DNA from: Yuukianura sp. NJ FZ-2021
Taxonomy: Eukaryota
Direction: 5' to 3'
DNA: 64,000 nucleotides
Assembly: GCA_046563655.1 (NCBI GenBank)
Contig: CM102285.1
Coordinates: forward strand, 2,976,001-3,040,000
The notes under the pieces: model-generated
The model's database searches: none
What the model was told of the DNA's origin: nothing
Seen by the model: only the letters and a program-made list of their open reading frames with translations
Part shown: positions 2,609-56,497 of the stretch, piece by piece
Position numbering within the stretch: position 1 is the first letter of the stretch
How the letters are laid out: every line of letters starts with the position of its first letter
Made by a program: the position numbers and the translations under genes

Positions 2609-5265
2609 TACGGTTAGTTTTGATTGGTCATGGCGGGAGAGCAAGTAAGGCACGCGTCGTCAGTCGTTGAACGCAATTGAACAAGAATGACATGAACAAG
2701 CAGCCGCTCTAACGTTGTCACTCGTGTGAGCAAATTGGTTTCGGTAGCATAGCAAATTGAAGTTAGCCGGTCGCTACGATTCTAAATTTACCGAATTTCG
2801 AAAAAACCTAAATCTAAATTTCAAAATTTTGGAAATTTTACATTTTTGTAAAAACCTTTAGTGTTGCTGCGGGGTCGGCTTAAGCATATGTGATACGTTG
2901 GGGTCACGGTTCTTTCACATATTGTTATGTGCACTGGGGATCAGTTAGGTAAGAATTAAATGAATCCATTTGATTCTCTTTACACTGCATAACAATGAGC
3001 ATGTGTTTAAGGGCCATATGGTACGTACTTTCCCCTGCTTTCACTTTAGCTACTGCTCTCCAGAACAGAGGGGCTATGTTGTGTGGTTGCCGTTCCTCAA
3101 GGGACCTGCAGAATAAATTGGACCAGGAAAGAATGAGCTTTTCATTGGACTTAAACGAGGAGTCCTTTTTGAATCTCCAACTGTTCCGAAGTCCCCTGCG
3201 CCCTTCAATTGTCTTCTCATTGTTCTGGAAGCCTAACCTAACCTTTGCCAAGGTCTGGCAAGTGCCATACGGACTCTGTTTGAGTTCAAAGGGCTCCTGG
3301 ACGGGTCCTTCACATATGGTCAAGGGCACACAGGAACAAAGTCACACAATCACACCCGGTTTCAATCTAGCAAAGAAAATAGATCAAAGAAGTGATTTAA
3401 TTGGGCAGGCTCCGTTGAATGCTGGCAGCATTTGAAGTAGTTCGGGCGGGTAATGTTGAGCTGGGTGAATCTCGATATGTTATGGACAGGAACGTAGCGT
3501 TTCATCGGGAAACTAAATTATTGTATATCTTATTATAAATATTTAAATAGTATAAATACTTTACATAATAAATATTTACTTCACATATTTGAAAAATACA
3601 AAAATTCTTTATCAATAAACACGATTTTATATTAGTACGCTTTTTATCCAATAATATTTCAGCAGAATATTTTTTGGGTTTTTGTGTGAGTGTCAACGTA
3701 GATTAATTATTTTACTCTTACATTTAAATGTTTTGGCGCGAAATTGAAACTTCCATATTTTTTATTAGAACTTTGTTATGTCAGAGTTTTTCAAAGTTTA
3801 TCATTTTCTGACAGCGATAAAGTTACAGCCCTCAAGGTTTAATAGTAATTCTTGAAGAGAAAGTACGCGGAAGAAGTTTGCTACAATAGTTTTCTAAGGA
3901 TAGGCTACCCTAACTTTCTCTAAGCACCTAAACTTTTAGGATGTCCTACTACAAACAGAGCAAAGTGGTGGTAAAATTTGAAAAGTTTTGAAATTTTGAG
4001 AAAGTGTTTTCTTAGGAGAAACTCCTCGGAAATGGAGCAGAGAAAGTTGGTTGGACAGAGAATAGAGTAGGAATTGAATTAGATTTGAGCCAAGTTGAGG
4101 TTGAAATTTAATTAAAGGAAAGAAGGGAGCTGGAGTTTATGAGCCCTAAGGAAGCTTATCATCTTAACCTAACCGAAAATGCCCGCGGAATACAAATTAA
4201 CAAGCTCATCTTCACGACACTTCCAGCCACTAACAAAGGAAGTCACAATGGATTCACATTACACGAAGAAACTGCGGTAAAACTTTCCCTTTTGAGCATA
4301 AGATTTTAGGGAAAATGAACTTTTCAAAACATGATTTTGAAATTCTCTCCACATAGACTCTAAATTGTTTTTGAAAAAACAAATGGAAAAGTTTTTAAAA
4401 AGTCAAGTCATTTGATTTAATGTTGCTTGCTAAAAAGTAAAACGATTTTTTTCGAACGTTGACGCAGGAGTTCAAAAAATCTAGAGCTTTTGTCTACTAA
4501 AAGAAGCCGACTTTTTTTTCAGAAATAATTTTTTTTTGAAAGAGAAAGTTTTCTTTGGAGAAAGTTTATTGCGTCACTGGGAAAGTAGATGAGCAGCTTC
4601 GAGAAAGTTCTTGTCAGAAAGTGACACACGTTAACCTTAAGGCGGCCTGCAATAAATCCTCCTGCTCGTAATTGGTTGGTTCTGGGTTCAGGAAACCCAT
4701 CCCCTTTTCAAATCTCCCGGATTTATGCCCTTCCACTCCGAAGAAAACCCGGTTGTTGCGCCTTTGACTCTAATACCCTCCTCCTCCTTCCAAGGCTCAA
4801 AATCCAGGAAAAGGTTCCACTTGTGCCCTTTCACGTTCCTCCTTTCACTATCTCACTTTCTCCTCTACTTCGAACGAATCCAGATCAGACTCTTAAACAT
4901 AAACCTTAGGTTAGGTTAACATAACCTTACGCTTGCATTACTTTCTCTACTTATTTCAAAGTGCTCACAATCGACAGCAACCTATAGAAGAGGTAATTGA
5001 TCTCTGGTGGACAAAACATCGCCAAAGTGAAAGTCAAAAGTGAAAGTTCGAAACTCAAATCATAATTTATCGCACATTTTTGGAGTGAAAAGCAAACGTA
5101 AAAAAAAACCAAAAGCACCGCGGCAAAAACTGAAGCAGGGAAAACATCGTTTTCAATTGGTTAAATTTTTGTTGAAGTGGGAATGAACGACATTTTGTGA
5201 AAAAATTTTCAAAATTTGTGAAAACAAAATCCGCTGCATAACTTTTTTAAATTGTGTTTTTGAAA

Positions 5266-6459
5266 ATGGAAGCGTTCCCGCCCTTGCAGTACGGGCAGCC
5301 ATCGCTGATGACGATCAGTGATCTAATCAACCATCGGCATCACCTTGTCGCTTCCGAAAGTCACTCACCAGGGCACTCACCACCAGAAGTTAAATCTACT
5401 CCAAGTCCACATGACCTTCGACACGTCAGCGCAGTACTCCACTCACGTGACTTTCACCTACCAATCACAAACGCCCATTTGCCACCACTGGGTCACTTGA
5501 GGTCACGGAAGCAAGAGTCCGACAGCCACGTCTACCAACTACACCACCCCACCCCCGCACCCCTTCCCTTCCCCAGTGCCACTGGAATGTTTCCTTCCAG
5601 ATTTCATCCTTATGGATTAGGATTCAGTAGCGGTAGATTTGCAAATGCAGCGATGAATTCACCCCCTGCGGCAATCCACGTCATCAAGGACGATCAACAT
5701 CCATCACGCTCGGTTTCTGACGACGACTGTGATTCCGAAGACACAAAACTTGACGTCGGACGGGAAAGATCGTCTTCCGTCAACACGATTTCTTCAAGTA
5801 GCGATTCAGACGGATTTAGTCAAACGATGGCCCGATGTCAAGAGTTGACGTCCTCATATCTCTCCAATCCTGGGGGAAAAGTAATTGGTCCGGGAGATGA
5901 AAATAATCAACCTGCTGCAATAGAAGTAGCTATGGAGGGAATTTCAAAAGGACGAAAAAGTCAAAAAGCCAATCCAACTTCCAAGAAAAGTCGCCAGGGG
6001 AAACACGTTCGACTTAATATCAACGCTAGAGAGAGGCGGAGAATGCATGATTTGAACGACGCACTGGACGAATTACGCGGCGTGATTCCCTATGCTCACT
6101 CGCCGTCAGTTCGAAAATTGTCAAAAATTGCAACACTCTTACTGGCAAAAAATTTCATTTTGATGCAAAGCAATGCCCTGGAAGAATTGCGAAGAATTAT
6201 TGGGCATATGAACACTACAGCGGGAATTCCGATTCCGACGCCAGCAATTATGGCGGCAGCATTTGAATCAAATTCAAACTCTCCCGCGAATTCAATTCCA
6301 CCACATCACCTGCATCATCAACTTCAAAATTCAAGTTCAGAAGGAGGGTCATCGTCGTTGTCTCCGCAGCATCAGCGACATTCACCCTCTCCGTCTCTTT
6401 TGGTGGGAGACAAAGGGAGGATACGATCTCCTCTGGGAATTTCTTCTTACTCGTCTTAA
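5266..6459 (+). CDS. Oli: Olig/Beta3-family bHLH transcription factor (Drosophila Oli; BHLHE22/23-like), single exon, 397 aa
   Basis: b[56 protein letters not shown] is the Oli/BHLHE22 signature. The first ATG is at 5266; the ORF track started upstream at a GTG. Confidence 0.93.
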
Positions 6460-8101: not shown

Positions 8102-11100
8102 ATGACAATGAGTCAATCAGTAATTCGCACCAATACGATAGTAGCGCTGTTTTCAGTTGGGCTAATTGCTGCTGTAGCTGCTGAATCCGGAAATGTGGTA
8201 AGTAATTTTTGAGTTTTCAAAACTTTTGTCAAACTTGCGTAACCTAGTAACCTTTCCGCTACTGAATTTGAATTTTGCAATATCCTATGCAAAAACATAA
8301 ATACAAAGTCAAACTGAAATATTTGAATTTATTGACGGAAAAGGCGACGTTGTTTTGAAACTCTCGACATGTCACAAATATGTAGAATGCAAAAAAAAAA
8401 TGTGTAAAAAGAAATCATTCGCCTTTTTTTTGTGAGGTTACTCAGTATGTCTTGGAGGGAAATGCAAGTCACCTAGAAACGTTTCCATCGGATGGTCGCG
8501 TTGGAGCATGCGCATTGAGCACAGTCAAAGTGTCATTTGCCAAAGTACGTCGCTCGGACATCATCGCATTTCTGCGAAACTGCAACGATCTCACCAGTAT
8601 CTATCTTATGGACATCATTTGGGAATGGGACGAAAAGTCAATTGATAGAATTCCCCTAGCACGACTGAGCGATTTCAAATTCCGATTGATTCCTACAGAG
8701 AACTCTCATTGGACATCTTCTGGTCACCTGGAGTCCATTATATTTTTCTACGTAAATGTCAGACCAACTGACGGACTCACTGAACTTCTCTCTTCTAGCC
8801 TCGAATTTTCAATTGAAGGAAGAACAAACGAAGGGAACTTGACGATGATCAGGTTGAGCATGGCTCATCAAAATTTAATTCGTACAACCAAGATCAGAGA
8901 CCAAGAAGTATGGAAACTTCTCTACGACATTTTACATTCATTTAAAACATTTTCTGCCACTTCATGTGTTCTGAACACCGAAAAAGTTGTGCTGCAGTCT
9001 GCCAAGGAAATTTCGCTGGACAAGAATGATCTTCTGGGACCAGTTGCCACCATAATTTTTAATGCCAAGAAAGTTCAAGTTCTCAAGGTCAAAGTTTTGG
9101 TAGACGAAGCAGTTGACGTTGCGTTACTTTCGAGTACAGTGAGGTACGTCAGTACCGAAAGTATCAGTTTCCGTTACAGTTCAGCGTCTAAACCAATTGA
9201 ATTCTTGAATTTGGCGTACCTGGAAATGACCGACGGAGACGTGAATCTCAAGCTCTTCAAAGGAAAGACGGAATTGAAGTTATTGCTGTTTGAAATGCTG
9301 CTATGGGACAGTACTGCGGAAGATATCTACGGCATGGAAAACCTATCAACACTGTTACTATGGTGTCAGTATGTACAAGGTTGCCCACAAGTGACGCTGG
9401 AACTTCTTCCGACTTCGACTCAAGAAATAGTCCTTTTCAATGTGGACGTGAGAGCAGGAAATGTCAGTGAACGTCTGAAACCAAAGTCGCTGTTTTTATA
9501 TTGGTGCAGAGTTGACCAAGATGTGCTGGATAATCTAACTAATGTGTATCCTAATCTAAAGTCTCTTGGTTTGTCAATTGATGACGTCATTAAACCAGAA
9601 ATTTTTCAAAAAGTGGTCTACACTTCGTCGCTGAAAAATTTAGGAGTTGGAATTCCAGCACAAACGCCCACAACAACTTTGACCAAATTTGAGGAATTGG
9701 CGCAGACGTACTTGAATTTGACAGTGAAACTGGAGAATTACAACTCAGCTAAGGATGTTAAATTAGTCAAAAATGGTGAGAACATATGGGAGTGCAGTGT
9801 TACTAGTCTGGGATCTTACGATGACATTCGGCGTGCCAAAATTTTGAAACTTTTTGGCGGGTCCAAAAATATTGTAAACACTACGGAGGCAGTAGAAGCG
9901 TTGAACTGGAGACATACCGTGTACCCAACAGTGTTATACATATTCATCGGTCTTGCACTTTTCGTCAACGTTTTTGTTATTATTGTGTTCATAGTTGAAA
10001 AAAGTCGCGGCAACGCACCATGGGCTCAACTTTTGCTCCATTTGACGGGATACTTTGTTTACTTCGTTACGACTGTTGTTCTAATGCACAAATTCACAAG
10101 CATATTTTACTCTGGAATTCCAAGTTTTGATGCACTACTGCCCTATGCTTTGCAGAGAACAGGTTAATTCATCCAACACTTTTGTGCACTGCCACGGCCT
10201 AATCAAAACACTGCCTAATCGCAATGTTTTGAAAAAAAAATTATTTATGTTTCCGCTCCCTTTTAATTTTCCATGGTAAATTCAAGCTCTTATGGTAGCA
10301 CGCCATTGTATCAATTGAATTGTATCAACTGGCATTGCATCAACTGAATTGTGTCAACTAGAATTGTATCAACTGGTCAATTGTATCAACGACTAATTGT
10401 GTCAACGAGTGTAATGCTTAATTTAGCCTAGGTTAGGTTAGGTTACGTTGGTTGATACAAGTAGCCGTTGACACAATTGAGCGTTGATACAATTCAAATT
10501 GACACAATTCAGTTGATGCAATGGTAGTTGATACAATTCAATTGACACAATGGCATGGAACCGCTCTTAGAGGCATGTCCACACATTCATGCAGAGTACG
10601 AATTAAAACGCGAGTTCAAATTTTGTTCAAATTCTTTATTGCAATATTGCAAACCCAACAAAAACGCAAGCACATTCAACTCATGTTGTTAAAAAAAATA
10701 CAAAAATGGTTTTTAAAAAGTTTTTTTCTTTTTTTTGGTTCTATTTTAGCATTTAGTTTGGTGGTGTTCCTGATAACTCTTTCTGCGTTCGAAGAAATCG
10801 TGCACACGTCCTACCTAAACAATCACGCAAACTTATTTTCTGTTAGGAAGAAGAAAATCTACATTTCAGCAACTATAGCATTAGCAATCTTCATTAACAT
10901 TCCGAGGTGGATGGAATGCCTTGTAGAGTGGAACTACGCAGCCGATTCAGCGCAATGGAGTTCCTACAATCCTGTACAACAACACAAATTTGCGGCTTAC
11001 CGGATAGCGTATGAGGAGGTGATTTGTTTCATTTTCGTTTACTTCATACCACTCCTGCTCATCATTATTGCCAATGCCTGCCACTGGAAGCAGGTAAGAA

Positions 11101-11594
11101 TTGTCATAATTATTCTAAAATCGTTTCAAATAATTTTGTTATTTATTATTTGTAAAAAAAATGTTATTGAATTTTCCATTTTATGTTTACGATTTTTATA
11201 GACAAGAGAAAATTCGCCGCCGTCCAGCAAAAGTGTTACGTTTGGTGGTAAACTACTTGAGTTTTTCAAAAACTACAAATTTAGGATGTGGTACTTCTTT
11301 GTTTGCCTTGTGGCATGTGCCTCAATAGAACTGGATCTGTTGCTAAGGAATTGGAATCCAGAAGTTATAGTAGTTTTCTCCAGTTTTCCGTTGGTTCTTT
11401 ACTACGCAACACAGTCTCCGTTTTGCTACTGTTTTAACACAGAATACAGAAAGGATGCTCACTCTATAAAGGAAGTAGAATTTAAAAGGAAGAAAAACAC
11501 TGAAAATACAGTCACGGAGACAGCCAACGGAAATGCGGGTGAAAATATTGAACTGTTGGAACAGAGAGGACCAACTACAGATTCAGAAATTTGA
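8102..11594 (+). CDS. Atypical class A GPCR (FMRFamide/peptide-receptor-like 7TM) with signal peptide and a ~480-aa LRR-like ectodomain; about 850 aa, 4 exons
   Basis: Exons 8102-8197 (signal peptide, donor GTAAGT), 8446 (or 8437)-10162, 10750-11093 and 11202-11594; all phases are compatible. Seven hydrophobic segments are present, including TM4 AIFINIPRWME, TM5 FIFVYFIPLLLIIIAN and TM7/helix 8 QSPFCYCFNTEYRK. The ectodomain carries LxxLxL repeats (CNDLTSIYL, ENLSTLLL, YPNLKSLGL, SSLKNLGV). Confidence 0.72.
10294..10562. mobile_element. MITE with GG...CC ends, 8-bp TSD and subterminal 15-bp repeats (Merlin- or MULE-like), in GPCR intron 2
   Basis: Left arm is tandem aattgtRtcaact units; right arm is their reverse complement. 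Flanks are gctcttat (10286-10293) and gctcttag (10563-10570), a 7/8 match. A TTAGG tract sits in the centre. Confidence 0.8.
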
Positions 11595-43136: not shown

Positions 43137-43676
43137 CACTTTTAACTCCAGTTTAAATGGATTCTCAATCGATATTTGTCTACAATGTGAACTAGTTAGT
43201 AGTCTCCAAACATTTGCGACAATATTTTTCGGTTTATGTTAATGCAGCAGATTTCAGCCGGATGCTCACCCGGTTACAACTGAAACCAGAAGTTGTAAAA
43301 AACTTTTTACAGATTTTACATGAAAGTGAGAAGAAAAGAAAGTGATTCGGTTAGAAACAAGCCAAGATTTGTGTCAATTGAAAAAAGTGAGCAGTAGCTG
43401 AAAATTAGAAGGGGTCTTTCTTGGCAAAAACCCATGAAATCTTGGAAATGACATTTGAAATGTAGCCAAAAAGAAAATATGAGGCTTCAAGAAAGATGAA
43501 ATTTAATACCAATTGACTCATTTCACTATTTTTCACTATAACACAAATGAAAATTGCTGTGAATTTGAAAATTATATTGGCATCAATTACGACGATAAAA
43601 ATGTAATTTTGTTGTAATTGTAGGTAGCGTCGTCAAACGCATGTCAGCATTGGCAACAAGCGTTACTTCAGGCGTG

Positions 43677-44992
43677 TTAGTCTGCCTTCGTTGAGCTTTT
43701 GAAATACGTATTTCGAAAAAACTGGGCAAAGAGAACGAAGTAGGAAGCAGACACGAATGTAGAAGCCAATGCAAAAGTCCAATTCGTTTCGCAATGTTGA
43801 CCTGACAACTTTGTCGCCACGGTAAATAGACTCGCTCCAAGAATCAAAACCATTTGTATGATTTGCATACAAGTAATTGCTTGAGATATCACTGGAGCCA
43901 CCCGAATGTTCAGCGCCTATAATGCAAAAATGAATCATACTTTTGCCAATCAATTGTTAACTTTCAAATACAAAGTCGCAGTAATATAACGATTAAGCTA
44001 GATTTCAGACATTGAACAGGAGAACGGCATTCCAGTCACTCCTGCCCAACTGAAAAACCCAAGGTTGCTATAGCAACCAATTGTATTGCTACAAGTAGCA
44101 ATCAACAATGTGCTTGTTTACCCACCTTGGAAAAACCTGAACTGGATTGATGATTGAAAAGTTGTTAAATACTTGTTCATGTCTTAATATGGTCATGATT
44201 AAGGAATATTTCGACAACATTAACTGACACATTCCAGAATATTGTTAAATTTACCTTGGCAGCGTAATAGGAGTACATAACGGAGTGTACGGTGTAATTG
44301 AGAGAACAAACCCATGCAGAAATTGGGCCATACGTATGATAAAACATCCAACAAATCCAGAAAATGCTCATGTGGTGATACCTACAGTTGTAATGGGGAA
44401 TCAGATATCATGATGATTTAATAGGATTAATATAAAAGTTATATTTTGTTACCAGTGCAAAAAAATAAGCGGACGTTTTCGAAGTACAATGAACACAGTA
44501 TCGCCGAATTCCAAAGCCTTACTCAAAACAAACATCAACGCCCAGTATCTGAAAGATGTTGACCAGTGATCACTGTAAGAAAATACCAAAATATGTCCTA
44601 AGTACATCGTTGTAACAAAATTAATAATTCCATACAAGAATTTTTCGTAATAATGTATAAATCCAAATGTGTTTTGATTGCATTAACGTATTGTCGTTAA
44701 CTTATTACTTGCGACATATCGAAGTGTACAAGGGATTGCTAGTTTGAAACAGTCCAGCGATTTCCGGCAGAGTGTTTACAGCTCCAAACAAACTGAATAT
44801 TGCCAAAAATGCGTTCCAGAGGAACAGAGGTGTTTTGAGCTCATAGGCTCTACGATTTCGCAATTTACGTTGGCCCAAGGATATCCCAGTGAGATACACA
44901 CAAATGAGTGGGTACACGAAAGCCATTCGGTTGTACGAAAACCACTCCCGCCATCTACGTTCAGATGCAGCCTCTAGTCTCCACAAATCCAT
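43677..44992 (-). CDS. ELOVL6: Very-long-chain fatty acid elongase, ELOVL6/3 subfamily, copy a; 4 exons, intact
   Basis: Spliced frame gives [42 protein letters not shown] (His box split by an intron), [13 protein letters not shown] and ITCMQIIQM. The symbol is at subfamily level; orthology is untested. Confidence 0.93.
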
Positions 44993-46586
44993 GCTTTGTT
45001 TACTGCAACAAAACTGATTACAGATTTGTCACAAATGTTCACCGGGAAAAGAATAGAATCGAATAAAATTCAATTCAAGCAATGTGAAAAATTAACCGAT
45101 TTTTCCAAGATTTGTCTTTTTCTTTACAACGTCTACCGAAGAAAAATTTGCTGAGAGGAGAAATCCGCCGTTTAAATGTACGTAGACGCTTTATATAACT
45201 CCGTACATTGCTGGATTCCCTACACTAGAGTTAACTGGGTTTCATATCATCTTGCAAGATTGAACATCGAATGTTGTCGGCGTTGCGAAAATTTCCCACG
45301 ACTTTAGAATAAATATTTTCCAAATTTATGTTTGTATTAATATATCAGTGTTTCGTATCCAGTTCTTCAAAGTTATCATGGAATCACCGGAACGCCATTA
45401 GTTTTTCTCACGGATCAACCCCTTCAAAGCTTTCAAAGCTTGTGTCCTCACTGTATAATGAAATATATATAAGGTAATATTCAATTTAGACTCATATAGG
45501 TCGTAGGTAGATTTGCTGAATATGATTAAATGAAAGTGAAAACAATAATTGCCAAGTTCCCTGGCAGCATGTTTATCTGCTTGCATAGTTACGGAATAAC
45601 GAATACGTCATTCGATAGACGGAGTAGGCATTAATGCATGAGAAAATATGAAATTGTGACGTTTGAGTTCCGAGTTCTCTCCACTTAGAAGCTTATTAGT
45701 TGTTTACAGAGTTGGATTATTATGTAGACAAGTTTTGCTTAACCTCCAAAAATATACAAACGTAAATAGTGAATTGGAGGAACAATAAAGTGGTCTTCGT
45801 CATTGCATACGTCTCTGTGGAAACATAGAAAGGCCTTATAAGCTTCGCGTACGAAAAATGAAACAAAATGGCTTGGTAAAACTCTTTTGCAGAAAAAGCG
45901 GAAAAGATTCGCGGGTTCACTTAAGTCTTACGAATACCTTGGAAACTAGGGGGGTCAAAATTGGGCTGTAACTCACGAATTGAATGGTGATGTGGCTCAG
46001 CATAGGAATGTCGTACAGTGACGTACAATATATCAAACCTAAAACACTTTATTTAGTATCATTCAAGAAAAAAATACAATATGTTATTTGTAACTATTAA
46101 AAAAAATCAATCCAAATGAAATGAAACGTGCGATAAAATTTATAATAATCGACATTTTAGTTCGAAACAAACAGCGTCTGATTAATAATCGAGTAAAAGT
46201 GTGGGGAAAACACTATAACAAAATATTTCAAAATGTATTTGCCAATGTTGTAACTCTTAAATAAGCGAAGCACTTTTACATAAAAGCGATTACAAACTGC
46301 ATCTATTTCCAAGTTAAATAGAATAATAGGGAAGGTCTTATCCAGATTGTTTTTCAAAACTAGTTGCTACGGGAATTTTATCACTCCCCGTGACGCCGTG
46401 TACAGTGCTGGCAAACATCATCATATTAATTATATTATATTTCATCATATTAACCTTCAAACGTTCGACGCTAATTTAAAAATAGCTTAAAACTCATAGA
46501 GTTGTCAGGGGGATTTTTGGTTTCTTTCTCTTTACCTAGAGTGGACATCGATGAATTTTTTAAACAAAATGTTTGAGATAATTTAG

Positions 46587-47798
46587 TTAGTTTGCTTTCG
46601 TTGTGTTTTTCAAATACGTATTTCGAAAAAACTGGGTAAAGAGAACGAAGTAGGAAGCAGACACGAACGTAGAAGCCAATGTAAAACTCCAACCCGTTTC
46701 GCAATGTTGACCTAATAATTTTGTCACTACGGCAAATAGACTCGTTCCAAGACCCAATACCATTTGTATGATTTGCATAGACGTAATTCCTTGAGATATC
46801 ACTGGAGCCACCCGAATGTTGAGCGCCTATAATACAAATACGAATAATAGTTTTACAACTCTACGGTTAACTTAAATAATAGACACTTAGGCGAGGAGGT
46901 CTTGTTAGAGTTGGATGTTATGCTAATGAATTGGGAATCAAGCTTGAACCGTTGCTTGGGTCCACCACAGGTAGGTTAACTTGAACGTTGTTAAATATGG
47001 GTTGATGTCTAAATATTGGTGACATCAGACAAATTCTTCAACAACTGACACGTTTTGCAAAAATGTTAAATTTACCCTGACAGCGTAGTAGGAGTACATT
47101 ACGGAGTGGACGGTGTAATTGAGGGCACAAAACCATGCAGAAATAGAGCCATAAGTATGATAAAATATCCAACACGTCCAGAAAATGCTGATGTGGTGAT
47201 ACCTACAGTGTAATGGCAAATCGAGCAAATTATATTTAATCATGCTCATTAACTATAATTAACCCTAAAGTTATAATAGTTTACCAGTGCAAAAAAATAA
47301 GCGGCCGTTTTCGAAGTACAATAAACACAGTGTCGCCGAATTCCAATGCTTTAGTCAAAACAAACAGCAAGCGCCAGTATCTGAAAGATGTTGACCAGTG
47401 GTCACTGTAACAAAATATCAAAATATTTCTTAGTCCGTCGTAACAACGTTACTAATTCCGTACTGAAATTTTTTCCAAAAATGTACAAAAATAAAATACG
47501 TATTGACAACTTGCTTGTGGCATGCGGAAGTGTACATGGCATTGTTAAATTTAAACAGTCCAACCATTTCTGGCAGGATGTTGACAGCTCCAAATATACT
47601 GAATACAGCTAAAAATGAGTTCCAGAGAAACAGAGGTGTTTTGAGGTCATAGGCTTTACGATTGCGCATTTGACGTTGCGCCAAGTAAATCCCAGTGAGA
47701 TACACACAAATGAGTGGGTACACGACAGCATTTCGGTTGTACGAAAACCACTCCTGCCATCGACGTTCAGCTGCAGCGTCAAATGTCCACAAATTCAT
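46587..47798 (-). CDS. ELOVL6: ELOVL6/3-subfamily elongase, copy b; 4 exons, intron 1 needs a GC donor
   Basis: Same motifs ([38 protein letters not shown]). Exon 1 47798-47515 is 284 nt, as in copies a and c, but is followed by GCAAGT. Confidence 0.88.
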
Positions 47799-48824
47799 AC
47801 TTTCTTTACCGCAAGAAAACTGATTATCGATTTGTCGAAAATTTTTACCGGCCAAAACCACAAAAGCAAATTAACGTGAAATCCAAAAACGTGGAAAATT
47901 ACTTTAGCTAAACTTTAGCCAAACAAAAATTAAAACTTTTAGCCAAAACGAAAGATGAGGACTAGACACATTCATAGATTATTACTAGTTTAATTAGACT
48001 AAGACCACATTCGTGGGTTCTAATTAAGGTTTGGTAAAAACAAATTGTACATGCTCGCGTATAAATGATAAATAAATTTCAGATTTCAACTTCCACATAA
48101 TTAATTGAGCAATATTGCAGCATCGAGCGTCATGTCGACGTTGAGGAAATTTCACACCACTATAAAATAGCAAAGTTCCAAGTTTATAATTGCATCAAGA
48201 TTCGCGTATGTTTTACTATATTCGTCAGAGAACATAGAAAAACCAACAGTTTTCTCAAGAATCAAGGCCTTCAATGAAAACTCTCTTTAATTTAAACTCA
48301 CACATTACGTAGATTATTTGCTGGATAAAATTAAACTAGTATAATCAAGCACAATAATGCCCAGCATAATAGCTTCTCATCTCATGACGACATACCTATG
48401 ACGATATATGGCTTGCGTAAGCAATTCGTCGCACGTAATCGGAAAATAATGCATGAGACAACATTAAATATTATAAAATACTTTGACGTGAACTTATACC
48501 TTTGACGTGTTTCCAATTAAAACCTTATTTAGTAATTAAAAAGTTGAGTGATGATTTTAATTGAGTTTTATCCAGAGTCCAAAAAATTTCAACGTAAATA
48601 ATGAATTTTAATGCACAAAACAACAAAACTTCCGTCATTGTTTGCGTCTCTGCGGAAACATAGTTGATTTATAGAATTTATTGCAAGGTAAAATCGCCTT
48701 TTATACGATTAGTTGATAATTTGATTTTGACTTGATTATAAGATTGCAATCAAAGGCAAAAACCAAAAACAAACTAACGAAAAACTAAAGTTGTTTAACA
48801 TAATATTTTGTCTAATTCGGTCAT

Positions 48825-50209
48825 CTACGACGAGAGTACGATAGATATAGAGTGATAACGTAAGCCGCTGTGAGACCAAAACATGTATGTTAATATTTGC
48901 CCATCACAAATGTCTTTGCATGCTGTGATGAATGCTTCTACACTTCCCTCGTCTGGAAACGCTTGATGCAATTTTTCAATAACAAGATTCATGTCAGCAA
49001 TTGTGCTTAACAGACGACGGTAAGTTTTATCAAAACTCTGATGAACTGGAATCATTTTTCGCACAACTCTGCGCAAAATTTCATTTTTCTCTGCTTCGTT
49101 TCCTACAGTGTCACCATGTAATCCAACAATATCGTTCAAGTAGACACCAAACTCCGTGACACACTTTACCAATGTTTGGAAAAGTAATGTTTTTCGGATT
49201 TTGTGAACATTAATCTTCTGCATTTCCACGTAGAATTCAAGATAAACTTCAGCGCCAATGTCGTGTCTTCGAAAGTGCTTCAACGTTTCTTCTCCAAACG
49301 TTACACTCTTGTCTGCTTTAGACATCAACACCGCTCCTTCCAAGGCATGCGTAAGCGCTGTTACTGTGTGTTTCCAACATGGTTCCGATAATTCTGCGTT
49401 GACCTTCTTCCAAGTCTGCGCAAGGACAGAAAACTTTTCCTCTGCTGGCGGATAAACTGAACTGATGCGTTTTCCAAGGTTGCTAAACTTCTCGTCGTTG
49501 CTTAATGGCCCCTCCAAATCACTTTTCTTGACCTCTGCCCATGCGCGTCGATATAGGTGCCAACATCGTCAAAAACCTTGTTTTCCTCAAAGGCGTCATC
49601 CGTATGGTACCCTGATACAATGGCGTCTAGACCTATTTCAAAAATGGTTGACTTTGCATCAAAACGTGGAAAACCAAGAGCAACGCAGACAATAAGTGCG
49701 TTCAGCGTTTTCGACAGCTCTTCTTCATCCAGTTCCTGTAAGAATGAGCGCAGTCGTTTGGTTGTAACACTTAATAGGTGATCTTGTTCTGCTTTTGTGA
49801 GGTCAAAGTAGTTCGAAATTGGGTAAGACCTTATGAAAAAAATAAAATTAATAAAATAAATCATAATAAACTTCATTGCGACTAAAATAAGTAGTAATTT
49901 TGAAAATATTTGAATAAAAATAAGAAAATATAAGTTCAAATTCCAACGATGCAATTCAAATATTTGGACTTTGAAGGATTTTTTTTGTTAACTAGAAAAA
50001 TGTAATATTTTAGATGCATGAATTTTAGAAATAGGTTCTACGTTTTACTTCCGAGAATGGAAAAGTTCGATTTCACCACCCAAATTTTCTGCAATTCCAA
50101 ACTGGGGGTGATCAATGGTTTCCAAATTGAACTTAACTTTCACTTTGTCCGATGCAATTGAACAAGGAAATTTAAAACGAAATGCTCCATCGTCTCCATT
50201 AGAAACCAT
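48825..50209 (-). CDS. Microbial-type class I terpene synthase (Terpene_syn_C_2/isoprenoid-synthase fold), about 390 aa; one intron and one frameshift (pseudogene or assembly error)
   Basis: Exon 1 50209-50049, a GT-AG intron of 219 nt, then exon 2 from 49829. Motifs fall in canonical order: GFPR, HTDDAFEE (DDxxD/E), FRRHDIG (pyrophosphate-sensor Arg), YLNDIVGLHGD (NSE/DTE-like), EKNEI and WSHSGLRY (WxxxxxRY). The frame changes between 49568 and 49505. Confidence 0.82.
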
Positions 50210-51050
50210 ATTTAACGTAGTAGTTTTAACGTCCTTAGGAACTATTTGCACTCTAAAGTGATACACTTTGCGTGGTGGGATTTTTCTAGCAATACTACAT
50301 AAAATCAAAAATTCTACAGACGAAGCAAGTTGTTATCCAATGCCATCCTCGGAAGGACATGCAAATATTTTTTTGTAACTACTATTGGGTAATCGCGCTC
50401 ACACAGACTCAATGATGTCAGTCTTTAATACTCTTGTTTTTTGGTTGATTTAAAGAAAACAAAACATGCAGTTTTTATATTTACTGGGGAATACCTGGTT
50501 GGAAAACTGATATAACGTGTTTCAGTCGGACACTCCAAGAATGCCGAAGGACCACAAGTTTTAGCACATTATTGAAGGAACAACACCAAAAAAGTGGTCA
50601 CTAACCATTTATTGGCTCAAATGCAGCTTATAAATTTGTAATACGGAGTAGAAATATTTCATATTCCGTAGTATATATAACTACTATAGTAAATTTAATT
50701 ATTGATTTTTGTAACTCTTTTTTTAATAATGTGTTCTTCTGTTTTTGTAATAATTTTCATAATCGAGAAAATCTATCATGCCCGCCCGTCGTGCATAACT
50801 TTTACTAAACTTAAGTTTACTTTCAGCAAAAAATATTTCAAAAACCATTGTTTTTTTTATTGGAAGGAATAATGTTCGCAAAATACGGGTTTGGCAATGT
50901 TGATGCTGGATTTACCAAGGCAATTTCGTGTGGGGTCGAAGAAAAATTCAAGGTGAACAACAAATTGAACTTCTTTTGAGATTTCCAGTAACTGAATATT
51001 AGTTGTACTAAAGTGAAAACACACTAAAAACTTATTTCAGTTCATAAAAA

Positions 51051-52016
51051 ATGGTGCAAACTTTGAAATTTGTAATTTTGCTCCTTACTGTTGGATTGTG
51101 TAATGGTAATCCTATGGACCAAAGCAATGGAGGCCAATCACAGTTGTCTGGAACTGAGCTCCTTGAAAAGTTTGAATAAACTTTATTTAAACATTTTTCT
51201 ACAAACCTCTTATAGCTTTTTGTTTTGCTCGAATTTCATGCTTGGCTCACATAACGTATAGTAACTATGTGATTATAGTTACATTATTTCACTTTTATTT
51301 ATTGTGCGTTGCTGTTTTTGGTAGGATGAGGGAGTGCGTGAAGTCAAGCTTCAATAGTCGATTTCACAATGAAACGCAACAGTGCTACGAAATTGGTTCA
51401 GCAGGACCGTGTGGAAATAATACCAACATGATTTTTCTTACGGAAGACAGTGAGGAAGACCACGGCCATTACGGGTCATGTCAATGCAAACAAGCGCGGA
51501 GAATAACCGCCTATTACTCGGCACATGGAAGGTGTTATTCCGTTTACGACCAGGTAACATGTGGTAAAGCGTTAGCAAAAATGGTCACATACTTTTTCCA
51601 TTTGGCACTACTATTTTATTTAATTTGCGCGAGTAGTCATATTTCCAACTGGTTGTTTCAAATTTTAGGGTTATTGCCCTGAAGGATATTTTTTGAGCCC
51701 TGCGCATGAGGATTCTGCTGAAATCGGATGCCAGGAGAATACATGTTTCCAGCCAGGGGTTCCGGACTTGATTCCATTTGAAGGAGACTGTGTCGAAATC
51801 GGATCACGTTGTGATACAGAAAGCGCAGAAGACGAATATGACACTTACAGACGGAAGAGAATTCAAATTGGGGATGATGGATATACGCTGTTTTGTGGGT
51901 ATCCAAACTATTCTGCGTTTTCAATTGCAGGAATCGTTGCAACTTGTCCAAGGGGCACGTACACAACACGGTACCTGACTTGCAGACGCGTCATTTTCAA
52001 TGCCGACGATTGGTAA
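51051..52016 (+). CDS. Secreted Cys-rich DUF4789-like protein, 3 exons
   Basis: Exons 51051-51169 (signal peptide), 51325-51553 and 51669-52016. Repeats CYEIGSAGPC and GRCYSVYDQGYCPEG match the arthropod DUF4789 CY...QGPC pattern. The first donor (GTTTGA) is weak. Confidence 0.75.
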
Positions 52017-52667
52017 ATGCTGGAACAAATGAACGCGAATTTGAGAGAGGATTCAATATACAAAAAATTCGTATTCGTTAAGAATAAAGCCTACACTGAA
52101 AATGTTAATTCTATTTTCGGTCGCAATTTTTAAACATACTCCTCGTGCCGGTTATTTTTGCAACGAAAGCAGTGAAGTCTCAAGCTTTGGTACAAGAACA
52201 AATGCTGATCTAATCTACTTTTCCCTAAAGTGTTGCATCACATGGTATAACTTTCGCGTCACATATGACCCTCAATTGCAAATTCTGGTTTGACAGTTTG
52301 TTTACATATGAGAGAGATCCTCCAAAATTTAAGGCTTTACGGTATCCCGCGCTGGAGGGGGGTGGGGAATATGGCTGTAACTTACGAATTGAAAAGCTGC
52401 ATCTGTTTCAATGGTAAGTAGAATTTTAATAGGTAAGGTCTTTAACGGATTGTTTTTCCAAACCTGGTTGCTATACGGGAATTTTACCACTCCCCTTGGC
52501 GCCATGTAGCGCTGCTAGACGTTTTCCTCATTTTAGCTACCAAACTTTTGCCGGTAATATAAAAATAGCTTAAAAACTCATAAAACTGTGAAGGTGATTT
52601 TTGCTTTTTTTTTCGTTTTAAATAGAGTGGACATCTATGCATTTTATAAACAAAATTTTTGAAACAA

Positions 52668-53847
52668 TTAGTTAGTCTGTTTCGTTGTGTTTTTCAAATA
52701 CGTATTTCGAAAAAACTGGGTAAAGAGAACGAAGTAGGAAACAGACACGAACGTAGAAGCCAATGCAAAAGTCCAATCCGTTTCGCAATGTTGACCAGAT
52801 AATTTTGTCACCGCGGCAAATAGACTCGTTCCAAAACCCAAAACCATTTGTATGATTTGCATAGACGTAATTCCTTGAGATATCACTGGAGCCACCCGAA
52901 TGTTGAGAGCCTATAATACAAAAACGAATAATAGTTTCACAACTTAACTTAAATAATAGAGGCTTAGTCGAGGAGGTGTTGTTAGCTTTAGGCACGAGGA
53001 GAAACGGAGTACGGAATCTAGCTTAAACCGTTCCTTGGTTCCACCAAAGGTAGGTTAACTTGCGCTTTGTTAAATATTTTTTCTTAATTACTAAACATTC
53101 ATTTAACTGACACGTTTTGCAAAATTGTTAAAATTTACCCGGACAGCGTAGTATGAGTACATTACGGAGTGGACGGTGTAATTGAGAGCACAAAACCATG
53201 CAGAAATGGAGCCGTATGAATGATGAAACATCCAACACATCCAGAAAACGCTCGTGTGGTGATACCTGCATTGTAAAATGGTAAATGAGGCAAATTATAT
53301 GTAGAATTAACCTTACAGTTATAATTTTTACCAGTGCAAAAAAATAAGCGGACGTTTTCGAAGAACAATGAAAACAGTGTCGCCGAATTCCAAAGCTTTA
53401 CTCAAAGCAAACAGCAAGCGCCAATATCTGAAAGATGCTGACCAATGGTCACTGTAACAAAATACCAAAAGATGACTTAGTTTGTCGTAACAACATTACT
53501 AATTCCATACTAAATATTTTTTGCAAGAATGTACAAAAACAAAATGCATTTTCATTAACTTACTTGAGGCATACGGAAGTGTACAAGGGATTGCTAGTTT
53601 GAAACAGTCCAGCGATTTCCGGCAGAGTGTTTACTGCTCCAAACATACTGAATACTGCTAAAAATGCATTCCAGAGGAACAGAGTTGCTTTTAGGTCATA
53701 GGCTTTACGATGTCGCATTCGACGTTGCGCCAAGTAAATCCCAGTCAGGTACACACCAATGAGTGAGTACACGACAGCATTTCGGTTGGAGGAAAACCAC
53801 TCCCGCCATCTATGTTCTACTGCATGGTCAAATGTCCATAAATCCAT
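52668..53847 (-). CDS. ELOVL6: ELOVL6/3-subfamily elongase, copy c; 4 exons
   Basis: Exon 1 53847-53564 (284 nt). [38 protein letters not shown] and ITSMQIIQM are recovered after GT-AG splicing. Confidence 0.92.
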
Positions 53848-54407
53848 ACTTTCTTTACCGCAACAAAACTGATTAACGATTTGTTACTTTTCACTGGCCT
53901 AAACCACAAAACCATGTGAAATCCAAAAACGTGCAAAATTAAAGCATAAAAAGCTTTTAAATCATGTTTTTGGGAAAAAATTTGAGGAGAAGAGAACTTC
54001 TGGTGTTGGTGTTATAACGGCGTTGAATTCCCTACACTAAAATAAACTTTAGTACACAAATTCGATAATTTTTACAAACCTGTCAAAGAATCGCGTAGTT
54101 ACTCGACTAGGTTAGCTAGTATAATGTTAGCCATGCTAAGTATAAATTAAGTAGAGTAGGATTAAGTTATAGTAATAATATGATATGAGTACCTTTTATT
54201 CTAAATCGGTGATATTTTGGAATAGGTTAGATAATTGTTTAAATAGAAACTTTTACTCAATTTCAAAATGAACTCAAAAAAACACTTTTTGAAAACCAAC
54301 TAAAACTTTAGCCAAAACGAAAAATGAAGACTAGCAACATACATAGATTATTACTAGCTTAATTAGACTAAGACCACATTCGTGGGTTCTAATTAAGATT
54401 TGGTAAG

Positions 54408-54751: not shown

Positions 54752-55216
54752 AACCCTGAAAACTGAAACTTAGTTGAACATTTAACTTTTAAAAACAACA
54801 CACTGATTAAATTTATCACAACTACTCCGTGTTCCAGAATATTCTATATATTCTACAAGCAGGAGTTTAGTCGTAAATGCCTAGAAGTCTTGAGTGTTCT
54901 AACGGAACAATTGAAGTTGATAAAGAGCAAACACTTGTTGAACGACAAGATAATTACCAGTGCAGTGTGAGATAGCTTTCATGTATAAATCTCTTGTCCA
55001 AGTGTTGTTTCAGTTTCTTTGGTTTCCAGTGGCCAGATATTTTAAACCATATGAAAACATTCCTGAACAATTACTAAATAGGAATTTTTACAAGTTCAAT
55101 AGGCTATTAAGTAAGAAAAAAAAAGTCGCCACATTTTTGAACTCTTGCACTTATTCCATATTGGAACAAAAAATCAAACGCTTCCCAATTAGAAATAGTT
55201 CTTTTAGTTTTGTAAA

Positions 55217-56497
55217 ATGGAAAAGTCAAGGGTAGAAGAAGTGATTGGTGAGTCTGTGACAGAGTTCGAAGTATCTCCAGGATGCAAAAACGGAGACGGA
55301 ATGGCGGGAAAACTAACTTCAATTTACGCCAAAACAACTTCAGGAAAAGAACTTCGGTTGGTTCTAAAAGAAGTGGATAAAAGTTCACCAATGGGCGGTG
55401 AGCAGGCAGAGGGCGGATCATTCAAAACTGAAAACATGGTTTACTCCAAGCTCATTCCAAAGTTGACCGAATTTGCAAAAAGTCGCGGCGTTGAAGTTCA
55501 AATTCCAGTTCCAAAGATTCAATCAACATACCAAGGAACGGAAACATTAGACGATTACATTTGCATGGAAGATGTTCGATATCAAGACTACAAGATGACG
55601 GACAAGTATGCCGGACTCAGCCTGGACGAAATGCTGATTGTCATGACCGAACTGGCAAGATTTCATGCTCTTGGGCATGCGCTGATCAGATGGGAAGGAG
55701 AAAAGATCTTCACAGAGTCACTTGCTACACTAGTTGAGTTCTTCAGTGTAGATACTTTTGCTGAAGAAATTCACCATCCAAAATTTGAAAGTTTTTACAG
55801 CATTCTACAAGGAGGTTTGCAAATTGCTGTAGAAGTTTTGGAAGGTCGAAATCCAAAGTTACATGAAAAATTGAAAAAACATGTCGAAAAAATTTCTGGA
55901 CCGAAAATAAATCGGGACGAACTTTACGGAATTTCAACTGGAACGGATTTCAAATACTTTCCAGTCATTGTGCATGGAGATGCTTGGCAAAATAACTTTA
56001 TGTTCAAGTACGACAAAAATGGAGTTCCGACTTCCGTCAAATTTCTTGATTTTCAATTCACCCGCCGTGGAAATTTGTATGAAGATTTGTTGTACACTGT
56101 ACACACATCTACTACACCAGAATTTAGACGTCTTCATCTTCCCACCATTCTGCAAAAATACTACGATTCGTTCACTTCGTTGCTCAAACAACTCAAAATT
56201 CATCGTCCAATTGGATTTACATTTGGATCATTTTTGGACACGTTTCGTGAAAATACTATCTTTTGTTATCGGTACATGACATTTGCAATTCCACTTCAAC
56301 TGGGAACTTCAATTCCAGATGTAATGGCCATGATGATGCAACAGAATCCAGGCATGCCTCCTCCAGCAGATCCAACTCCAGAAGAAAAGATGCAAATGTT
56401 TATGGGAATCATGCGCGTCCAGATCAACACTAGCCCAAGGGCTATAGATCGTCTTGAAGCATTGACACAGGAAATGGTAGATTTAAGTATCTTGTAA
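55217..56497 (+). CDS. Ecdysteroid kinase-like (EcKL/DUF227, choline-kinase-like) small-molecule kinase, single exon, 426 aa
   Basis: Motifs GDGMAG, LVLK, FKTENMVYSKLIP, YICMED, ELARFHA, Brenner motif VIVHGDAWQNNFMF, VKFLDFQ and DLLY. Confidence 0.92.
   Translation: MEKSRVEEVIGESVTEFEVSPGCKNGDGMAGKLTSIYAKTTSGKELRLVLKEVDKSSPMGGEQAEGGSFKTENMVYSKLIPKLTEFAKSRGVEVQIPVPKIQSTYQGTETLDDYICMEDVRYQDYKMTDKYAGLSLDEMLIVMTELARFHALGHALIRWEGEKIFTESLATLVEFFSVDTFAEEIHHPKFESFYSILQGGLQIAVEVLEGRNPKLHEKLKKHVEKISGPKINRDELYGISTGTDFKYFPVIVHGDAWQNNFMFKYDKNGVPTSVKFLDFQFTRRGNLYEDLLYTVHTSTTPEFRRLHLPTILQKYYDSFTSLLKQLKIHRPIGFTFGSFLDTFRENTIFCYRYMTFAIPLQLGTSIPDVMAMMMQQNPGMPPPADPTPEEKMQMFMGIMRVQINTSPRAIDRLEALTQEMVDLSIL

Follow-up and report, generated by a model that had tools for sequence, protein, structure and literature searches.

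The question raised by this locus is whether an arthropod genome carries, as a gene of its own, a terpene synthase of microbial type, and whether the copy found there could still make an enzyme. The stretch analysed (hereafter the window: 64,000 nucleotides (nt) of contig CM102285.1 in assembly GCA_046563655.1, numbered from its first letter) holds the gene at 50209-48825 on the minus strand, where a first-pass annotation made from the letters alone had called a class I terpene synthase of microbial kind. That arthropods have canonical terpene synthases was discovered only recently, and where these came from is not settled. We are fairly confident that this locus is a two-exon, animal-resident terpene synthase gene, that the assembled copy was recently broken by a 1-nt deletion, and that a second version, which keeps the frame, is present in the same sample.

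Gene layout, motifs and fold

With the break read through, the gene has two exons and encodes ~388 amino acids (aa); all of its features lie on the minus strand. Exon 1 (50049-50209) opens with an ATG at 50209-50207 and continues as an open reading frame for 161 nt, or 53 codons plus 2 bases, its N-terminal segment including the sequence DHPQFG (50096-50113). The 219-nt GT-AG intron described by the first-pass annotation was located at 49830-50048; it is of phase 2, with the donor GTAAAA and an acceptor ending in ...TTTTTTCATAAG. The 5' part of exon 2 (49560-49829), which continues in the exon-1 frame, includes SYPISNYFDLTKAEQD as well as the Asp-rich motif DDAFEE (49583-49600), and both the alignment and colinear tblastn matches pair it with residues 1-100 of the related proteins P0001-P0007. 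The 3' part (48828-49559) lies in a shifted frame of 244 codons with no stop and carries the Arg sensor RRHDIG (49254-49271), the second metal motif NDIVGLHGD (49110-49136) and WSHSGLRY with its RY pair (48855-48878), so that all four motifs noticed at first pass are present in the order then given. The full-length reading ends at a TAG (48825-48827), and an AATAAA 145 nt past this stop (48677-48682) is, by consensus match only, a candidate polyadenylation signal. Numbered along the 388-aa read-through protein, the Asp pair stands 155 aa before the N of the second metal motif, the Arg sensor 44-45 aa before it and the RY pair 92 aa after it. Three other gene models were rejected: an intronless one with its start at an ATG within the intron (MKFIM...), as the relatives keep exon 1 and have no such start; one using the alternative donor GTTTGG, whose 273-nt intron would delete conserved exon-1 residues; and one with a short intron spanning the break, where the relatives align without a gap.

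The 247-aa product of the open reading frame downstream of the break (48825-49568; the C piece) was compared with 1.84 billion representative proteins by HMMER (phmmer), giving 26 library matches at E <= 1e-3, numbered here from P0001 onwards, of which 7 reached E <= 1e-10 and the best had E 1.7e-24 at 38% identity. Pfam assigns PF19086 (Terpene_syn_C_2) to 9 of the 10 closest relatives at E <= 0.01, 7 of them above the curated cut-off and P0008 at 92.9 bits. In the reverse direction, each of eight relatives run by tblastn against the window matched the terpene synthase locus and nothing else at E <= 1e-5, and both gene halves match colinearly, with P0002 reaching E 3.7e-44. The sole match of the family profile in the PDB was the terpene synthase 7ofl_A (E 0.004), aligned across both metal motifs, and the matches in a protein-language-model atlas were PF19086 clusters (score 0.96). 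A word-indexed protein search found no near matches to the terpene synthase pieces, and its use with a profile of the alignment A2 returned P0014 only. Pfam gave no meaningful match for exon 1 and the N piece, and no match to a polyprenyl synthase family for the window pieces or the 10 relatives.

An AlphaFold (AF2) model of the C piece alone, that is, of the part downstream of the break (pLDDT 76.9, pTM 0.72), was compared with the PDB by Foldseek. The matches listed are class I terpene synthases or N-prenyltransferases of terpene synthase fold (E 1.9e-4 to 3.7e-3), the best being 9c7k_B (E 1.9e-4, TMq 0.62); they include pentalenene synthase, BcBOT2, cineole synthase and epi-isozizaene synthase at TM-scores of 0.56-0.66, and neither a globin nor a trans-isoprenyl diphosphate synthase (trans-IDS) or trans-prenyltransferase is among them. 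At residue level, DDAFE aligns with the DDxxD of all 16 aligned relatives, with E in the window at the fifth residue where 16/16 have D; in A2, R237 and Y238 are invariant, R100 is nearly so, and N145, D146, G149 and D153 are invariant or nearly so. The roles of the diphosphate-sensing Arg and of the RY pair are assigned from published families, and the motif names follow PMC13638087. Taken together, the sequence and model comparisons support the assignment of the locus as a homologue of microbial-type, alpha-domain-only class I terpene synthases rather than as an IDS-derived one. The first-pass call is borne out by the HMMER relatives, by PF19086 in them and by the fold of the model; an isoprenoid-synthase fold was found and a grouping with IDS was not, and both outcomes favour a terpene synthase.

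A maximum-likelihood tree of the window protein and 23 of the 26 library matches (library proteins only, the three under 240 aa being left out) places the window in a five-row clade with P0001-P0004 (support 100/99), adjoining P0002 (81/86). This bears on the second metal motif, whose form NDxxGxxxD had been singled out as a non-standard feature of this gene. NDIVGLHGD keeps the N and D of (N/D)Dxx(S/T)xxxE and has G in place of S/T and D in place of E; G stands at the former position in 15/16 relatives, D at the latter in 14/16, and K or R at the eighth place in 15/16. What had seemed peculiar to the gene is a family trait, and NDxxGxxKD reads, by sequence comparison, as the clade's own form of the motif. 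Only the G at the K/R place is the window's own (0/16 relatives). In bacterial enzymes such as epi-isozizaene synthase, the basic residue at this place helps hold the diphosphate. Reasoning from the family, an intact member would bind a prenyl diphosphate via a Mg2+ cluster held by the Asp-rich and NDxxGxxKD motifs, with the Arg sensor and the C-terminal RY pair gripping the diphosphate, and would then ionise the substrate and so start carbocation chemistry.

The one-base break and the second version

Exon 2 changes frame between its two halves (open reading frames 49502-49987 and 48825-49568), and one extra base at 49559/49560 is needed to join ...ENKVFDDVG to HLYRRAW. At this site (49559-49560), 10 codons after the Asp-rich motif, the window is one base short of both the relatives' reading and a second version seen in reads. 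The exon-1 frame then meets a premature stop (49502-49504), and the assembled copy encodes a product of 162 aa from which three of the four motifs are missing: the Arg sensor, the NDIVGLHGD metal motif and the RY pair. The first-pass annotation had hinted at the break by speaking of a "frame-corrected" protein; the break is real, and it had been passed over too lightly. Its picture of an uncharacterised enzyme with unusual chemistry cannot apply to the assembled copy, which cannot make an enzyme, and fits at best the frame-keeping version.

Contigs of four public runs were compared over 48600-50500; X1, X3 and X4 belong to one sample (S1), and X5 is of another organism at low depth. A 391-nt contig of X4 (49389-49779) crosses the site with 0 differences from the window at a word depth of 104, X3 holds both versions, with 112.8 of the 253.5 depth at 49554 lacking the variant letter, and a contig of X1 has A in place of T at 49554 and of G at 49559, together with one gap. 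Where the X5 match stops, at 49560, its loose end counts 17 letters against 16 in the window, and the minus-strand reading of this end, ...DDVGYLYRR, is in frame on both sides. Because the deletion is present in read contigs, it is not an assembler slip. The second version differs from the window by ~3% in the coding stretch and by ~9-11% in the flanks and the exon 1/intron region, has an intron 160 nt shorter, and shows a single listed coding indel, +3 (AAA behind 49199), in all four runs. The depths of the two versions in X1 are nearly equal (18.8 vs 22.7; 22.8 vs 23.1), which is compatible with fixed paralogues as well as with the two haplotypes of a single animal. Separately, loose contig ends near the start of exon 2, at 49784, 49821, 49895 and 49932, run into unlike sequence, a hint of further diverged copies or fragments elsewhere in the genome.

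Could the gene simply be intact and working, and the missing base an assembly or sequencing error in the window? We regard this as unlikely. The 244-codon downstream frame is open, which was true of 0/20000 shuffles of it, the motifs are conserved, and the extra-base version does occur in the same sample, all of which speaks for such an error. Against it stand the separately assembled X4 contig, identical to the window across the break, and the substantial share of X3 depth without the variant letter; moreover, the break site is not a homopolymer, and the extra-base version also differs at 49554, at 49559 and in the flanks, as another haplotype or copy would, rather than as a corrected read.

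The deletion is young, since the 244 codons downstream of it are open and still recognisably conserved (E 1e-24). The window has the longest end branch of its clade (1.21 vs 0.38-0.76) and keeps 22 of 28 highly conserved columns, compared with 93-100% in P0001-P0007; among other departures, E has replaced D in the Asp-rich motif, G the S of FSEE and H the G that follows RY, and neither that D>E nor the G at the K/R place occurs in any of the 16 relatives. We take the branch and the lost columns as signs of loosened constraint or of divergence.

Several observations weigh against our interpretation. The frame-keeping version is known only as contigs of 160-790 nt and may be allelic or paralogous. 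A single sample, possibly the source of the window assembly, supplied the runs in which the deletion is confirmed, so that these runs are not independent of that assembly; if S1 was the source, they confirm the content of the reads and not that of other individuals. The long end branch could reflect divergence of the host rather than decay. Among the 25 coding differences listed between the versions (151 further differences exist), 11 are synonymous and 14 are not, and this synonymous excess over random change is a weak hint of some constraint. Finally, the C piece alone scores below the Pfam threshold for PF19086 (19.3 bits vs a cut-off of 23.7; E 0.0011), and the whole protein cannot be scored by Pfam because of the break.

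One might also suppose that the broken copy keeps a role, as a 162-aa N-terminal protein or through a product started downstream of the break, and the open downstream frame and the synonymous excess (11/25 listed) could be read that way. We consider this very unlikely, however, for the two metal motifs of a class I synthase must stand on a single chain, three of the four motifs are absent from the 162-aa product, a start downstream of the break finds no support, and the window departs from its family at 6 of the 28 conserved columns.

We return to a gene broken recently by one deleted nucleotide. The deletion shifts the frame and leads to the 162-aa product, so that the assembled copy is most probably a young pseudogene or a null allele. 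The second, frame-keeping version, 3-10% divergent and shared by this sample with a related organism, is by its sequence the candidate for a working enzyme. As the frameshifted version may segregate beside the frame-keeping one, the locus is perhaps a natural knock-out that could link the enzyme to a terpene phenotype.

N-terminal exon, genomic setting and host

The ~55-aa N-terminal segment had been described at first pass as an extension on its own exon. The separate exon is real; the segment itself is not an addition. We fetched by pattern scan five metagenome loci encoding relatives (L001-L005), of which four come from one metagenome project and may represent few organisms. A homologue of exon 1 lies upstream of the relative in L001, L002, L004 and L005, and L003 has only 500 nt upstream. 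These homologues span 51-56 aa from Met, share the core ...DHPxYG... and have invariant M, K24, H34, P35 and G38; exon-1 tblastn matches within the related loci have E values of 6e-6 to 4e-3. In the more distant relatives P0008, P0013, P0017 and P0018, the exon-1 segment is contiguous with the rest of the protein. A gene caller of prokaryote style started the library proteins of the window's own clade at an internal Met, and they therefore begin roughly where the window has its exon 2. Likewise, the public calls at L001 1300-2466, L003 502-1593 and L005 4206-5234 start at internal methionines or inside the intron, without the first exon, and database lengths of 318-346 aa understate the real relatives by ~50 residues.

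A phase-2 GT-AG intron occupies the same place in the window (219 nt) and in L001 (452 nt), L002 (59 nt), L004 (108 nt) and L005 (73 nt), in each case joining exon 1 to [S/A][Y/F/L]P/T-[I/V]-[S/P]-N-[Y/F]. The comparison with related loci corroborates exon 1 and the intron as probably real, and exon 1 reads, on these alignments, as an old, conserved part of the family and not as an extension gained here. In contigs of X1, X3 and X4, 160 nt of the window's intron are missing (joint 49831 to 49992), so that the long intron may carry a 160-nt insertion, without which it would measure 59 nt, like those of L002 and L005. Neither these 160 nt nor the locus as a whole has a second copy within the window.

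A possible structural place for the segment is suggested by the AlphaFold model of P0013 (pLDDT 83.9, pTM 0.86), in which it folds into four short strands (pLDDT 92-95), with one more strand at the extreme C-terminus (the window's counterpart being the tail at 48828-48860). To judge from the list of secondary structures, the N-terminal segment and the C-terminal strand would pair into a small beta-sheet. The remainder of the model matches class I synthases at TM 0.61-0.74 (normalised to target). The bacterial and fungal structures, covering ~325 of 373 columns, do not align with the beta module.

The loci of the relatives are themselves animal-like in sequence. L003 carries a 524-aa open reading frame with multiple C2H2 zinc fingers, a BTB exon and an EamA-type transporter exon (under the Pfam cut-off), L005 has exons of a Band 3/HCO3-transporter and L001 an ABC-transporter exon, all of them broken up in the manner of exons. 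A search of 185,579 prokaryote species genomes with the narrow pattern ND[IVL][LF]GLxKD[VIM] gave 26 matches and 0 relatives, a result that is weak on distant bacterial kin. The clade of the window thus appears, from its sequence surroundings, to reside in animal genomes.

The setting of the window gene points the same way. ELO-family exons lie on both sides, as claimed at first pass, and are on the same strand, the downstream one at 47433-47870 (minus; PF01151, E 5.8e-12) and the upstream one at 53563-53883 (minus; E 3.9e-11); a third is found at 44708-45028 (minus). They belong to three tandem ELOVL copies on the minus strand (43400-45300, 46200-48100 and 52400-54200) that are 78-90% alike in DNA, and the terpene synthase sits together with a DUF4789 gene (exon at 51191-51679) between the second and third copies. 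An ELOVL exon lies ~950 nt from the synthase on one side and the DUF4789 exon ~980 nt on the other; a literature search on DUF4789 turned up one paper, an unrelated one. Within 6 kb lies an intronless gene of the EcKL (ecdysteroid kinase-like) family (55208-56494, plus; PF02958, E 2.2e-51). GC content is even across the window, that of the coding sequence being 0.419 in the synthase and 0.401 in the EcKL gene. The first-pass argument against contamination gains strength from the ELO, DUF4789 and EcKL neighbours, the host-like GC and the real intron, and these features of the sequence support a gene resident in an animal nuclear genome.

Two further alternatives concern the locus as a whole. 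That the stretch is foreign DNA, from a microbe or another arthropod, misjoined into the assembly seems to us highly improbable: such synthases are rare in animals and the closest relatives are metagenome records, but the GC of the locus is that of its surroundings, its spliceosomal-type intron stands where the relatives have theirs, ELOVL and DUF4789 exons flank it closely, run contigs bridge coding sequence and flanks (X4 48633-49166, X1 50183-50500), and none of the 26 prokaryote pattern matches was a relative. That the gene is no terpene synthase at all, its motifs being chance features of a globin-like or other all-helical protein, has practically nothing left to recommend it: besides the sub-threshold PF19086 score, a phmmer search of the C piece against the PDB gave 68 matches at E <= 10, of which the 60 shown were all globins (two plant hemoglobins, the others myoglobins), headed by a myoglobin at E 0.0033, but Pfam Globin is absent at E <= 1 for the window pieces, relatives at E 1e-24 carry PF19086, the fold matches are terpene synthases and none a globin, and the motif residues sit in invariant family columns. 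The myoglobin match (48828-49568, minus) was accordingly rejected as chance likeness between helical proteins. Its alignment had looked plausible over 114 residues, and weak matches among helical proteins can mislead.

Elsewhere in the window, Pfam gave nothing above cut-off for 20 further open reading frames, Rfam gave 0 matches and a tRNA scan 0 genes. A 593-aa frame on the plus strand (8386-10167), followed by hydrophobic-rich frames (10503-11594, plus), has no Pfam match, and these frames (8386-11594) could be part of a large membrane protein gene. A 402-aa plus-strand frame (5251-6459) has a bHLH domain (E 1.4e-15) and presumably resembles an Olig-family transcription factor.

As to the host, the atlas clusters of the EcKL protein are 100% Eukaryota, most commonly Arthropoda, and within arthropods the family is, according to bioRxiv 10.1101/2023.06.29.546846, limited to Hexapoda and Crustacea. 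The EcKL neighbour therefore indicates a hexapod or crustacean and not a mite. Whether the lineage of this animal, hexapod or crustacean, lies outside Sciaridae as well as Collembola is worth entertaining, though we tend to doubt it, and a springtail, a hexapod that also has EcKL genes, could be the host. If it did lie outside both groups, one more animal lineage would have canonical terpene synthases, and the shared intron and N-terminal exon would show movement between animals as spliced-gene DNA, or deep arthropod ancestry, and not direct arrival from a microbe. In any case another host is added, hexapod or crustacean, though possibly a gnat or a springtail, and an N-terminal exon and phase-2 intron common to five loci of one clade favour spread or descent among animals over repeated microbial transfers. 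The locus presents no new enzyme type, and the window copy is not expressible as it stands; its main residual interest lies in the host lineage and in the exon-intron structure that the clade shares.

Comparison with known terpene synthases

The sesquiterpene synthases of bacteria and fungi (pentalenene synthase, BcBOT2, epi-isozizaene synthase and aristolochene synthase) share with the window gene the fold and the order and spacing of the motifs. The likeness in fold amounts to TM 0.56-0.66 for the window's C piece and 0.61-0.74 for P0013, whereas sequence identity is 10-18%. Unlike them, the window's clade has an additional beta segment at the N-terminus and an intron, its second metal motif carries G instead of S/T and D instead of E, and the close relatives whose loci were found are on animal-like contigs. 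The insect terpene synthases derived from IDS would have the same presumed job, but the window gene has neither a polyprenyl synthase match nor a trans-IDS among its listed fold matches.

Much closer in kind are the canonical synthases of arthropods. Laterally transferred terpene synthases in trombidid mites were reportedly described in 2018 (PMC6275457). Chen et al. (PNAS 2024; PMC11665903) recorded canonical synthases in 5/5 Sciaridae among 361 insect genomes, in 2/3 springtails and in 12/15 acariform mites, with introns, host neighbours and measured activities, and argued for transfer from mites to gnats. Like the window gene, those of Sciaridae and acariform mites encode class I enzymes with an alpha domain only, contain introns and have host genes as neighbours in an arthropod genome; identity between lineages is ~24-43%. 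Members tested by Chen et al. make mono-, sesqui- or diterpenes. The window copy differs from them in being frameshifted. A host outside the mites, with its nearest relatives on other animal contigs, would fit the story of a move from mite to gnat.

For springtails, Wang et al. (Angew Chem 2026; PMC13638087) give 277 genes in 21 of 26 genomes, 55% of them with introns, and their section 2.1 has fungus gnats as the sole hexapods besides springtails with canonical synthases as of August 2026; our literature search found no later report of such synthases in further insect groups. The five springtail enzymes studied there are said to have the standard NDXXSXXXE triad, unlike the NDxxGxxKD of the window's clade. 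The published work on arthropod synthases may already describe the N-terminal segment, the intron that the clade shares or the change from S to G in the motif. With its fold, its intron and its host-gene neighbours, the window gene fits as another member of the arthropod canonical terpene synthases already in print from mites, springtails and Sciaridae (PMC11665903, PMC13638087).

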